NCBI RefSeq assembly: GCF_018350175.1
Contig: NC_058368.1
Coordinates: forward strand, 14,324,001-14,388,000
Direction of reading: 5' to 3'
Source of the DNA: Felis catus
Taxonomy: Eukaryota
Length of the DNA stretch: 64,000 bases
A program made the translations under genes and the position numbers. Under the pieces are notes generated by a model. It did no database searches and was not told the DNA's origin. It saw nothing but the letters and a program-made list of their open reading frames with translations. Positions 38,750 through 45,430 of this stretch are shown piece after piece. The first letter of the stretch is position 1; each line of letters opens with the position of its first letter.

Positions 38750-39460
38750 TTCGAACCGGCCCGAGCGTTGGGGGATTCCGAGGAGGACGCGGGAGGCAGG
38801 AGGCGCCGCGGAGCGCGCGCACAGACCCTCCAATAAACACAAAGGAGGGCCTGGGGAATAGAAACCCAAATCCACTTGTAATCGTACAAGAGATTCGGGC
38901 ATAATTACTTGAGCAACCTAGATTAAGATTGATGAGCCTTTAAAGTGGCGCTTCAGATCGACCGCCTCGCCCTTTGGAAAGAAAAACCTTGTGCAGCCGA
39001 GATGGACCCCGACTCCGCTTGGCTACGCGGCGGGAACTGGCGGCCCGGGACCCAGGCCGGGAGTGCGCGCGCCCCGGGGCCGGGCCCCCCGGTGCGGGCT
39101 CGGGGGGTACCGAGGGCAATAAACTAACCGAAAGGGCTTCGCGTTAGTGTGACCCAGGCGGTCAGCTCGGGGGTGAAGGCTGACACTGACGCAGTTGGCT
39201 TCCTGTCCACCCGGTTAGGCGCGACCGAAGCCGGCCGAGAGCCCTCTCCGTGCCTCCCGCGGCAGAAACGGCCCGGCTTTGTGCAGGACGGTAGCGGCCT
39301 CGGGGCGCACGCCTCCCTGGGAACGTGAACTTCCCCGCAGTCCCCGGGCCCCGCCGGGTCGGGCCTGCCAGCGGTGGCCTCGGCGGTGGCGGCGCGAGCC
39401 GGTCTCACCGCGAGGAGCCGCCGCCGAGGGGCCCGAGCCCGAGCGGCCGCAGGGGACCTG
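38750..39460. promoter_or_regulatory. Intronic CpG island, about 1 kb upstream of NBEA exon 40527 and downstream of the MAB21L1 3' end
   Basis: Abrupt GC-rich, CpG-dense block (gcgcgcgc, ccgccg, GCGGCCGC) in AT-rich intron. Confidence 0.85.
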
Positions 39461-40526
39461 CCTTTTTATTGCCTTTATCCTACTGTGACTGTGACTCGTT
39501 TGACTATGTGCATTTCAGGGCGTGGGGGGAGATGGAGGGGGGGGAGGAATGGAGGGGAACTTAAGGCGCCCTTGCTACAAAAAAAAAAAAAAAAAAGAGA
39601 GAGAGAGAGAGAAGAACAATAAAAAAAAAGAATAATTTCTGTGTTCCATGTCTGTGTTTTCAGTACAGGATAGCAAAGAGTGCCTCCCCTTTCGGGGAAT
39701 CTTAAAGGGGCAGTTAAGTGATCCCCTTTGAATTAATATTCTAATACGTAATTTTCAACATTAACTCAGATTGAGGGAATTCGAAGTAGGCACACTTTCT
39801 GAAACATCTTTTCCTGAAGATTAGTTTCTCTAGTTTCAAAAGTTGAGAAATAGCACTTCTGGCACGCTTTTCTGAGAATCGCCTTGTTCGAGCGTCTTAC
39901 AATTTCATCACTTTTGACTGATTCTCTGTGAAAATCACTGCTACGATTTTTGTTCTTTTCTACATAAGAAACGTACTTAATATCCTTGTGTGTGTGTGTG
40001 TGTACGTGCGTATGTGGCGCGGTTTAGGACGCCGATGTGAATCTTCATGCAAGTTGCAAACCCGTAAGTTAGTACAGTGGAATTCATACATCCAGATCCT
40101 CTACGCCTTCACACCCTCCCGCCCATCCTTGGGGAACTCCGCTGCCCAATGGACCGGGCTTTCCCGGATGGCTGGCCTTTGGGGGCAGTGCTGACTGCCT
40201 AGGGTCTCCCAAAGCCGGTGGTGCCCCACGGAGAATCGGGGCATTTGTGGGATTTCTAGGCGGAGGTTACCAACTCTCTTGCTAAGGGTCACTTACTCGG
40301 TATTCTGACCTCTTGGGGCTTTATAGGATTCTGTATCTCTACTCTCGTTATAAGATAATGTGCAAAAGCTAAGCAGACCTTATCTCACACGAGAGGAGCT
40401 AGCCGCATGACCACAGGCACCATTTTCTTAGTACATCTTTAAAAATAAAGACCTGCGGCACCCTTCGGGAGGGAGCGGGAGAGGGCCACAGGGATTCAGC
40501 CTGACTCCGGTGCCCTTGTCTTTCAG

Positions 40527-40663
40527 GCCCAGTGGTTCTCAGTACCCCAGCCCAGCTCATCGCTCCTGTGGTGGTGGCCAAGGGGACTCTCTCCATCACC
40601 ACGACAGAAATCTACTTCGAGGTAGATGAGGATGATCCTGCCTTCAAGAAGATCGACACGAAA
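40527..40663 (+). CDS. NBEA: NBEA internal coding exon, 137 nt, start of PH domain: (G)[45 protein letters not shown]
   Basis: Acceptor cccttgtctttcag| at 40526/40527; donor AAA|gtgagt at 40663/40664. In frame with the previous exon. [15 protein letters not shown] is typical of the BEACH-associated PH domain. Confidence 0.95.
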
Positions 40664-41984
40664 GTGAGTTAGAGTGATTCTGTAAACAGTCCTGGTGGCT
40701 TTGTGGCAGGAAGTGGTTTTCAATTTTGCTTGGTTTTAAATGACAGTGGGGGAGGGGAGCATGTTTCCATCTTTGTCATAGGAAATAAAATGAATGAAAT
40801 AACACATGCTCTATTTTATGGGACTGAAGAATATATTAATGATTTTAAATCCCGTGTTACCAGAGCATGCTCATTTTAATACTTTCTACATGAGAGCCTT
40901 TGTCTGCACTTGGGTAGATTTGATAGTTAAGCCAATTGTTCAAAGTCTCTGGGGTACAGCATCCCAAGCTCTTTGGGAAGACTGGGAAGGTTTTTCTGGA
41001 ATACCTTAAGATCACTTTTAATTTCCAGACGTGTACATTGAAATGTGAATTATTATTCATTAAAAGGTTATAAGGAAACGGGGGGGGGGGGAGCGAGGTG
41101 GCATTTAAATATAAATTCATCTCCATTATTACATCCATTTTTCATCTCCTGAAATAAGAATGCGCTTTACATGTGAATTTAAGAGCAGGAGAAACTAATT
41201 CTCTAAGAAGCATCGATTTCAAGTGTGTAGGTCATATATACTAGCAATCAGATGTTTAAAGTTTGCGTTCTTCTGTGGGTGTAATGCCAGAAGATACATA
41301 TTTGGACAATTTGAAATGCATAAATATTTATTTAGTATATCTTATTGTGTAGATTTTAAAACCTGATGTTGGGACAGCTCTACACCTCTGCACTTTCTTT
41401 TCAAATCAATGTGATTGTTGTTTTAACTTTTATGTTACCCTGCAGTCTGTAAACTTTTCTGAGGTTAAGAATTCAAGTGTCCTGCTAGATATCCAAGCAT
41501 CAGTATACAGAAGATCTTCCTTTGCAAGCTTTATCAGAAGCAATTATTCTAAAATAGTCAAAGACAAATGCTCCCACAGATTCAGAACTTTATTATTTGT
41601 ATTTAATTTTTGTATAGAAATAAAGTATTATAAAACACGATTTGTAGAAGAGGAACTGAAACTCCAAAATCTACCCTCACCTGAATTAACTGCCTACCTT
41701 AGGGCCTGTAGGTGGTTAGCTCTCAGCACTTGTTGACTATTAAAATACTTGGAAGGACAGTCAAAGGACTTCTTACACTTCTGGCTCCCAAAGGATGGAA
41801 TGTTTAAAATGAGCTGAAATGTAGTGTATTTGATTTTTAAATAATTTAAAGTTTGTCTTTATGCTTTTATCATTAGCTTGCCCTACAAAGGAAAAATAAA
41901 TTTTGGGTTTCTGATTAACTTATTCAGCTAATGGAACACTAACTGCATAAAATAAGATTTGACATAAAGTGGTCAGAAATAATC

Positions 41985-43252: not shown

Positions 43253-44332
43253 CTAAAGTTTCTCCAAACTTTTCGGGTTGGTCAGGATCTCTCTCGCCAG
43301 TCGCCACGTTTGTTTGGCAGCGTTCTCCAGAGCCGAATGAGGTTTGCCTTGGAACAGATCTAAGTTCGGGAGGAAGTAGTGAGGACACCGCCGGCACTGC
43401 AGGCAGGAGATAAGTTGCAGCAAAATCCCGTTAAGCCGATCACCCAGGCAGGACTCGTCCCAGTCCGACTCCCGGGGATGCTTTTCACACTCGTAGGAAA
43501 CCAGAGTCTTCATGTGGTAATTGTTGAGGGGCTGGCCGGGCAGTTCGAGGTGCCGATCCCGCAAGGTTTTGAGGATGGAGAGGCATTTCTTCCTGCAGCC
43601 CCCCATCTGCAGTCTGTTCTCCGCTTCCGCGAACTGCAGCACCCAGGCGTCGCTCTCGGCCGAGCTCTGTTTGCCGGCCAGGGAGTGGCACTCCTTGGAC
43701 AGGAGATTGAACCCTTCCGCTTTGACCTCCGCCACCCGGTTGGGTCCCGGCCAGGGGATGTGGGGAAGCGGCCAGTGGGCAGCACTCCTGGGCCAGATGC
43801 CGGTGCACTTAAAGGCCGGGGTGATCTGCACCACGTACCTATCTCGGATTCGCAGTTTCACTTCGCTGGTGTCCGCCACCATTTTCACCACGTCCCTGTA
43901 GCTGCATTTGTCCACCGCCTGGGCCACCAGCGTCTGGAACCTGGACCGGATCTTGCGCGCCGAGAGGTAGCCGGAGGCGGTGATGAATTCCACCCAGAGG
44001 GACATGCTCCTCTTGCGCCCGTCGCTCAGCTTCAGCACCGCGCAGCCGGGCAGCGAGCCGTCGTCCACAAAGTTGAACACCCCCATCTGGTTCAGGTAAA
44101 GCACCACTTCAAACTCGGTGGGGGAGATGACCTCGAGGCCCTCGTAGCGATTGTCCATCTCGTTGAGAGAGCTGATGAAGCGGGGCTCCTGGACCTCCAC
44201 TTCTTTCAGGACGTCGGAAACGACTTTGCAGACTTCGCGGATCGTCTTGGCGATGGCAGCCTTCCTGGCCTGGCACTTCTCGTTGTAGTATTTATTCAGA
44301 TGGTACACCAGCTTGGCCTGGGCCGCGATCAT
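43253..44332 (-). CDS. MAB21L1: Protein mab-21-like 1, 359 aa, single coding exon, nested antisense in an NBEA intron; cGAS/Mab-21 nucleotidyltransferase fold
   Basis: ATG at 44332 (CCCAACATGATCGCG); 1080 nt to TAG. Runs MIAAQAKLVYHLNKYYNEKCQARK...TNPKSLEKL. YHLNKYYNEK, SLNEMDNRY and SLEKL distinguish L1 from MAB21L2, and the host gene is NBEA as expected for L1. Confidence 0.98.
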   Translation of the reverse strand: MIAAQAKLVYHLNKYYNEKCQARKAAIAKTIREVCKVVSDVLKEVEVQEPRFISSLNEMDNRYEGLEVISPTEFEVVLYLNQMGVFNFVDDGSLPGCAVLKLSDGRKRSMSLWVEFITASGYLSARKIRSRFQTLVAQAVDKCSYRDVVKMVADTSEVKLRIRDRYVVQITPAFKCTGIWPRSAAHWPLPHIPWPGPNRVAEVKAEGFNLLSKECHSLAGKQSSAESDAWVLQFAEAENRLQMGGCRKKCLSILKTLRDRHLELPGQPLNNYHMKTLVSYECEKHPRESDWDESCLGDRLNGILLQLISCLQCRRCPHYFLPNLDLFQGKPHSALENAAKQTWRLAREILTNPKSLEKL

Positions 44333-45010
44333 GTTGGGGCAGAGATCCGGATTGTACACCGGAGTCTCGCAGTAAGCTGTGGGATCCAATGCGGCTGCTA
44401 GAGCGGGAGCCAACTTCGGTGGAGAAACGGGCCGCCGCGCTCAGAAACGCACCCAAACGCTCTCCGACGTGCTGCCGCGCTGGACTCCCAGCCCGCTGCT
44501 CTCCCCCCTTCCTTTTATCTTTGAGCCCGGACGGCCTGAAAGTGAAAGCCTGCTCTCCCCCCCACCCCCCTCGGTCTTTCTTCCTCCTTTAAAGGATCCT
44601 TGTGCGAGAGAAACGCAAGGAGAGATCACCTTATCAGTAGTGAAAACAAAAGTTGCGCCGAGACCCAGCAAAGCTCCTCCCGTAGCGAAAATAACCGGCC
44701 CTCTCCGTATTTATTTACGCCTTCCCGCAATCATCGTGTCTGCCGGACTGTTAATCAGACGGAGGAAGAGTGTGCGGAGTGTGTGTCGGGGGTGAGTGTG
44801 CGTGTGTCTGTGTCAGAAGAAGCTGCTGTTGGTTTGTCTAAGAGCCCAGATGCACTCGTGTGGAAATTATAAAGGCAGGGCCAGGCAGGCTGGCGGCCAA
44901 TCGCCACTGGGCTCGTCACGACAGCCTCCTTCAGCTCCAACCCGGCTAATTAATCCCCCCTCGTGGATATAGGCACACAAACTAAAGGTAGGAGGCTGCT
45001 GCCGGCAGAA
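43280..45010. promoter_or_regulatory. CpG island covering the MAB21L1 CDS, 5' UTR and promoter
   Basis: High GC and CpG density throughout. Confidence 0.85.
44835..44960 (-). promoter_or_regulatory. MAB21L1: MAB21L1 core promoter: TATA-like TTATAA (44867-44872), CCAAT box GGCCAATC (44895-44902), homeodomain site CTAATTAATCC (44946-44956)
   Basis: Motifs read directly, at the edge of the CpG island ~0.5 kb upstream of the ATG. Spacing fits a - strand TSS near 44840 (inferred). Confidence 0.6.
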
Positions 45011-45390: not shown

Positions 45391-45396
45391 TGTTGC

Positions 45397-45430
<34 letters not shown>
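45391..45430 (+). repeat. (TTG)n trinucleotide repeat ~0.55 kb upstream of the MAB21L1 TSS
   Basis: Read directly. Confidence 0.95.

Follow-up and report, generated by a model that had tools for sequence, protein, structure and literature searches.

The window analyzed here, a 64,000-nucleotide stretch of Felis catus DNA, carries the MAB21L1 gene on its minus strand, where the annotated coding sequence (positions 43253-44332) forms a single open reading frame of 359 codons beginning with the ATG at 44332-44330. MAB21L1 acts in eye and brain development, and it and its paralogue MAB21L2 cause microphthalmia, coloboma, aniridia, and a recessive neurodevelopmental syndrome. Residues 2 to 359 of the encoded protein are identical to those of the solved human protein (5EOG/5EOM), and the sequence matches the Pfam families Mab-21 and Mab-21_C with 151 and 103 bits, respectively, against a cut-off of 24.1.

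The MAB21L1 frame stays open for 36 codons 5′ of the annotated AUG (44333-44440, minus strand), as far as a TGA at codon −37 (44441-44443), just as an initial annotation of this DNA had described. That annotation also placed two in-frame TTG codons in strong Kozak context within the stretch, and both are present on the minus strand, where a purine occupies −3 and a G occupies +4 in either case. The first, at codon −27 (44411-44413), has A at −3, occurs in MAB21L1 only, and would yield a protein of 386 residues and 43.8 kDa; the second, at codon −19 (44387-44389), has G at −3, is common to MAB21L2, and would yield 378 residues and 43.1 kDa. The main AUG itself has A at −3 and A, not G, at +4, and the only further in-frame near-cognate codons, AAG (−28) and GTG (−9), both stand in weak context. 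Read from codon −27, the frame gives LAPALAAALDPTAYCETPVYNPDLCPN. The nearest upstream AUG opens a seven-codon uORF (44711-44734, minus strand) that begins 402 nt and ends 378 nt before the main AUG, with no AUG between the two. In terms of the criteria for a conserved non-AUG N-terminal extension (PANT), the open frame is in phase with the coding sequence and has no upstream AUG inside it, and its good-Kozak near-cognates are two TTG codons in MAB21L1 and one in MAB21L2.

MAB21L1 and MAB21L2 alike have seven upstream AUGs within the 1.4 kb before the start, and in both a short in-frame uORF ends ≈380 to 440 nt before the AUG, with no later AUG. A run of about 12 CAA/CAG triplets lies at 45392-45430 (minus strand), 1.06 to 1.10 kb 5′ of the MAB21L1 AUG; the human MAB21L1 5′ UTR contains a polymorphic CAG repeat (PMC11176344). 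A second GC-rich island is found at 39000-41000 (0.56 and 0.49), ≈2 to 4 kb downstream of MAB21L1 on its strand.

We compared this anatomy with a Markov chance model trained on the 600-nt leader (20,000 draws). Under this null, 36 codons stay open with p = 0.38, at least one strong-context in-frame TTG arises with p = 0.09, and two arise with p = 0.004. The open frame is ordinary and the TTG pair modestly unusual, so that the anatomy alone is weak evidence; given p = 0.38 for the frame, the real signal is its conservation. Across vertebrates, the first eight to nine upstream codons are variable, the last 27 are kept in MAB21L1 orthologues, and the last 19 to 20 are kept in MAB21L2 as well. The conserved core of 19 codons (44333-44389, minus strand) consists of a start-proximal block and an AUG-proximal block.

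Comparison with MAB21L2

A search of the window's own genome located MAB21L2 on another contig. It has a TTG at codon −19 in the same context as in MAB21L1, but its frame is closed by a TGA at codon −21 and spans only 20 open codons; of the two starts put forward initially, that at −19 is common to both paralogues and that at −27 has no MAB21L2 counterpart. One mammalian-type MAB21L2 model, P0232, has Trp at −21 where the window's genome has TGA; either the codon is TGG in that species or TGA was read as Trp by the gene caller. Two distant Mab-21-family matches occur elsewhere in the genome (L003 on G000:C18 and L004 on G000:C22), with 28% and 34% identity.

Over codons −19 to −1, 16 of the 19 residues are identical between the paralogues, and the MAB21L2 upstream peptide given in the initial annotation proved correct. 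The bias toward synonymous change about which it had asked is present as well: third positions account for seven of the 10 base differences (binomial p = 0.02), or for eight of 11 when codon −20 is included (p = 0.009). Only three amino acid changes separate the paralogues, against 6.5 expected when the same 10 substitutions are placed randomly (p = 0.009), and the two other sense frames have seven and eight changes in 18 codons. Paralogue identity in the extension (82% of bases and 84% of residues) is the same as in coding codons 1 to 19. Base identity drops from 82% to 37% 5′ of codon −20 (codons −40 to −21), so that conservation stops at the proposed start, a further PANT criterion. In MAB21L1 orthologues, the divergence sets in 5′ of codon −28.

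Both paralogues retain the −19 TTG; among the 40 aligned coding-sequence codons that specify Leu in the two genes, not one is TTG in both. A degenerate pattern for the start block matched the MAB21L1 and MAB21L2 loci only in 2.4 Gb, and its control gave 0 matches. The A at −3 of the main AUG is also kept in both genes. The paralogue numbers are small (10 base differences), yet as sequence comparisons they all point in the same direction. They bear on one alternative reading, that the stretch is conserved as a non-coding RNA or DNA regulatory element and is not translated meaningfully. A test built on 10 differences only leaves this reading some room, but the third-position bias and the scarcity of amino acid changes in this frame, and not in the others, count against it, and we consider it improbable.

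Conservation across vertebrates

For the wider comparison, we used database proteins whose gene models run through the region, 240 in all, 105 of them vertebrate-type. Of these 105, 56 start at the AUG itself and are uninformative, and 49 reach beyond it; a species with a broken extension would show merely as a 359-residue protein, one among those 56 rows. The full motif is found in 43 of the 49 extended proteins and a partial motif in six. Extension lengths among the 43 are 19 (40 rows), 20 (two rows), and 41 residues (one row), with one further 20-residue row outside this count. Named sources of the extended models include, among the fish, a catshark, Arapaima, carp, catfishes, and Gambusia and, among the tetrapods, Xenopus, a newt, a gecko, a rattlesnake, pigeon, sparrow, bat, sheep, and rodents.

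Among 23 distinct indel-free rows, a per-position count that includes the chimeras P0009 and P0153 described below, nine positions do not vary, nor does the final Asn. Invariant residues are Asp, Tyr, and Cys in the start-proximal block and Pro, Asp, Cys, Pro, and Asn in the AUG-proximal block, and exchanges elsewhere are mostly conservative (Glu/Asp, Thr/Ser, Tyr/Phe, and Leu/Val/Ile). Insertions are all of whole codons and all lie between the two conserved blocks: one codon in a catfish and a characin, and 22 His/Pro-rich residues in P0019, whose sequence starts exactly at the conserved Leu. By the PANT criteria, these are coding-type substitutions and frame-keeping indels (+1 and +22), alongside the published PhyloCSF scores given below. 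Insertions of one and 22 codons that preserve the frame, together with the conservative exchanges, also speak against a non-coding element.

Leu-Ala-Pro at −27 is kept in MAB21L1 orthologues (22 rows). The preceding residue is Lys, Ala, Gly, or Asp in all 20 scorable rows, and one additional row has Gln; the codons for the former four all begin with a purine, matching the need for a purine at −3. Gene-caller proteins from short contigs start exactly at −19 seven times with Met and twice with Leu, and exactly at −27 twice, both with Met, which would imply a start-capable codon at these positions, most simply TTG. Conservation of the start codon at the DNA level is direct for the two paralogues and indirect, via these gene-caller starts, across species; the residue at the start is Leu in every read-through model from shark to mammal.

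Two models, P0009 and P0153, join a MAB21L2 front to a MAB21L1 body and, judging from diagnostic sites, are probably assembly chimeras; we dropped them from the start-residue counts and kept them among the 20 tree rows. P0019 is a divergent MAB21L1-type protein whose long branch is nested among the vertebrate sequences (96/95). An AU test neither establishes nor rejects its placement outside the jawed vertebrates (p = 0.105), and an origin in a jawless fish is a guess.

A scan of metagenomes kept 80 of 153 mab-21 loci, of which 74 were scorable, all of them invertebrate-type sequences. None of these 74 loci has the vertebrate extension motif; many have stops close upstream of the Met, and in 31 the equivalent Met follows a short tail that begins with AUG. 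Weak tblastn matches in public collections that reach into the extension proved spurious on inspection, and viral contigs gave 0 matches. In their protein annotation, amphioxus and hemichordate sequences begin at the core Met. Arthropod and mollusc Mab-21 sequences (L007-L084 and many of P0025-P0198) have an AUG six to nine codons upstream of the vertebrate-aligned Met. Invertebrate Mab-21 proteins thus resemble the vertebrate ones in having a conserved short stretch before the equivalent Met (six residues in arthropods and seven to nine in molluscs), but these tails start with AUG, are much shorter, and lack the vertebrate motif; any homology to the final residues of the vertebrate extension is putative.

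The extension predates the split between MAB21L1 and MAB21L2 and, in the present sampling, is confined to vertebrates. Coding-type selection older than the duplication, which the initial annotation had suspected, is supported by the paralogue test, the vertebrate proteins, the frame-keeping indels, and published PhyloCSF.

Published evidence and probable initiation at UUG

Both human genes are among the 60 PhyloSET genes in the supplement of Fedorova et al. 2022 (PMC9789052) and are listed in its RiboSET_ext too. According to these tables, MAB21L1 has 36 codons, a PhyloCSF score of 228.3, a TTG at −27, rank 1950, coverage of 40.9%, and 0 peptides; MAB21L2 has 20 codons, a score of 291.6, a TTG at −19, rank 4331, coverage of 7.1%, and 0 peptides. 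PhyloCSF was calculated there from 120 mammals, the TTG calls came from a modest Trips-Viz Ribo-seq signal, and both Ribo-seq ranks lie below the top-500 cut. The recalculated scores in the addendum are still positive (251.0 for MAB21L1 and 193.3 for MAB21L2; PMC10764858). These entries describe the same feature in human as the one analyzed here, with the same open codons (36/20), the same TTG positions (−27/−19), and positive PhyloCSF. They differ in being confined to supplementary tables and to mammals, without discussion or re-annotation: the available main text has 0 mentions of either gene, and neither is among its 30 re-annotated genes.

Elsewhere, MAB21 genes gave 0 matches in the main text and two of the three supplements of Ivanov et al. 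2011 (PMC3105428), MAB21L1 and MAB21L2 have no entry in the supplementary material accessible for a 2024 proteomics survey of translated 5′ UTRs (PMC11317171), and both are absent from a review (PMC9082881). Literature searches, subscription papers aside, found no paper discussing the extension. The extension was thus already catalogued as a prediction in 2022, and protein-level proof was not found in the accessible parts of these sources. The present analysis adds the range from shark to mammal, the paralogue comparison, the in-frame indels, the recognition of −19 as the start common to both genes, and a published patient variant in the 5′ UTR that would change an amino acid. Since the 2022 screen included both genes, what is gained is a basis for setting priorities and a sharper test rather than a discovery.

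At the protein level, the accessible text of Baldessari 2004 reports a single 41-kDa band for endogenous MAB21L2 with a C-terminal antibody (PMC545073). The two MAB21L2 forms have predicted masses of 40.9 and 43.0 kDa, so a minor upper band could have escaped notice, and a dominant one is less likely to have done so. This band, the zero peptides and weak MAB21L2 Ribo-seq in the tables of PMC9789052, and the missing entry in the PMC11317171 supplement are what a stretch conserved without meaningful translation would give, but PhyloCSF that was positive twice over 120 mammals (PMC9789052, PMC10764858) argues against such an element. As to the longer proteoform postulated initially, coding-type selection bears it out at the level of sequence, whereas in these published data the protein level, with zero peptides and one band, does not. 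The extension is devoid of Lys and Arg, which makes its tryptic N-terminal peptide 26 or 34 residues long, with two Cys, and this may account for the absence of peptides.

We consider it probable that the stretch is a deeply conserved translated extension, giving rise to one or more minor UUG-initiated proteoforms beside the main 359-residue form. Translation and purifying selection would cover the 19 codons that precede the AUG, or 27 of them in MAB21L1. Leaky scanning is an established mechanism, and UUG is a weak start codon. A fraction of the scanning 43S complexes would initiate at a strong-context UUG, at −19 in both genes and at −27 in MAB21L1, and the remaining complexes would leak on to the AUG. 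The products would be the main 359-residue protein, a minor form of 378 residues from both genes, and one of 386 residues from MAB21L1. We infer the use of UUG as the start codon, the minor status of the long forms, and their role.

Two other modes of non-AUG initiation fit less well. No stable hairpin lies downstream of the UUGs in any of four stretches (z scores of −0.74 to +0.28, no better than shuffles), so that the hairpin shortly 3′ of the start that marks structure-assisted non-AUG initiation was not found; this lack of RNA structure beyond shuffles also weighs against a non-coding RNA element. Exclusive non-AUG initiation of the EIF4G2/TEAD1 type is not seen either, as each paralogue has a conserved downstream AUG with A at −3. 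The MAB21L2 variant c.1A>C is described as a presumed loss-of-function dominant allele in the available text of Seese 2021 (PMC8238893), and since it would cause only an internal Met to Leu change in the UUG form, the AUG form appears to matter.

The converse possibility is that the UUG form is the main or sole functional protein in vivo and the annotated AUG mostly an internal Met. The extension matches the first 19 coding codons in paralogue conservation, there is no G at +4 of the AUG, a short tail begun at an AUG precedes the equivalent Met in many homologues from arthropods and molluscs, and forms of 41.0 and 43.0 kDa are easily confused on a gel. Against this, UUG is weak as a start and both genes retain the A at −3 of the AUG; in the published material available, Ribo-seq coverage of the extension is partial (PMC9789052), c.1A>C is reported as a presumed loss of function (PMC8238893), and the endogenous band was read as 41 kDa (PMC545073). 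We regard a main or sole UUG form as highly improbable.

Entry into the coding stretch by splicing from an upstream AUG-bearing exon, with no initiation at UUG, would also produce an extended protein. Several AG dinucleotides lie inside the stretch, and the models P0003, P0004, P0006, P0150, and P0151 enter it from unrelated upstream sequence. These five automated models differ in their entry point, however, and the pyrimidine content before each AG is just 0.25 to 0.65. In MAB21L2, described in the accessible text of PMC4897736 as a single-exon gene, the sole AG between the −21 stop and the TTG is GAG, and in MAB21L1 conservation reaches −27, upstream of the TAG and CAG candidates. We give splicing very little credence and retain UUG initiation with leaky scanning as the best explanation.

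Possible role, clinical variants, and related systems

The human MAB21L1 crystal structures (5EOG/5EOM; PMC4897736) represent the same core protein, with a cGAS-like nucleotidyltransferase fold, and differ in that the construct, as described in the text available, is without the extension. According to the same source, MAB21L1 is monomeric in solution, and the pentamer contact in the crystal is formed by Ile2, Ala6, and Tyr10 (PMC4897736), residues that adjoin the attachment point of the extension. A tail there could, by conjecture, alter self-association or partner binding. The 36-residue extension has no Pfam family match. In an AlphaFold2 model built on a 65-row alignment (mean pLDDT 68.6), extension residues 1 to 21 are below 50, and a helix runs from about residue −4 on with low confidence, which would make the spine helix longer by a few residues. 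A single-sequence structure model was useless (pLDDT 36).

Candidate signal features in the extension are the two invariant Cys residues, an invariant Tyr, and a Ser/Thr-Pro site. Because the spacing between these Cys residues varies, two short modules are more plausible than a fixed metal site. Tentatively, and with somewhat less than even confidence, we suggest that the extension may be a mostly unstructured tail before the spine helix α1, carrying a short interaction or stability signal and altering partner binding or self-association at the α1 surface. A bolder proposal, which we think unlikely, is that of a pan-vertebrate UUG-gated module, possibly present in jawless fish, whose distinct proteoform would be substantial in the developing eye and brain and would control partner binding or oligomerisation through α1, with variants like c.-68T>C acting as missense or start-context alleles. 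If it were true, structural and rescue work on the 359-residue form would have missed a regulatory part.

The initial annotation had further suggested that some 5′ UTR variants could be missense, and one concrete case exists. The variant c.-68T>C, found in trans to p.Arg62Cys, is classed as a non-coding variant of uncertain significance in the available text of Seese 2021 (PMC8238893). Its equivalent in the window, at 44400 on the minus strand, is the middle base of the CTA (Leu) codon at −23, so that T>C would read as Pro in the −27 form, given a human codon that is assumed to match the window's genome used here. The position is poorly conserved: it is variable, already Pro in Xenopus and a frog model, and outside the shared 19-residue core, and a damaging effect is therefore doubtful. 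A MAB21L2 ClinVar entry in the supplement of Fedorova et al. (PMC9789052) concerns the A of the AUG and does not lie within the extension.

Expression constructs in the MAB21 papers examined, including the accessible parts of PMC545073 and PMC8238893, are N-terminally tagged versions of the annotated form and are unable to reveal initiation further upstream. Should the longer forms exist, 57 to 81 nt of 5′ UTR would count as coding for variant interpretation, start-loss alleles would have to be re-read, and an orphan cGAS-like protein would gain a new conserved module.

Conserved UUG-initiated extensions have been described for NTF3, TEAD1, and ENOX2/tNOX in the text and supplements available for Ivanov et al. 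2011 (PMC3105428). MAB21L1 and MAB21L2 share with these genes an in-frame UUG 5′ of the annotated AUG and coding-type conservation. The tNOX case differs in that its extension is AUG-started outside mammals, whereas the MAB21 extension has Leu at this position in every read-through model.
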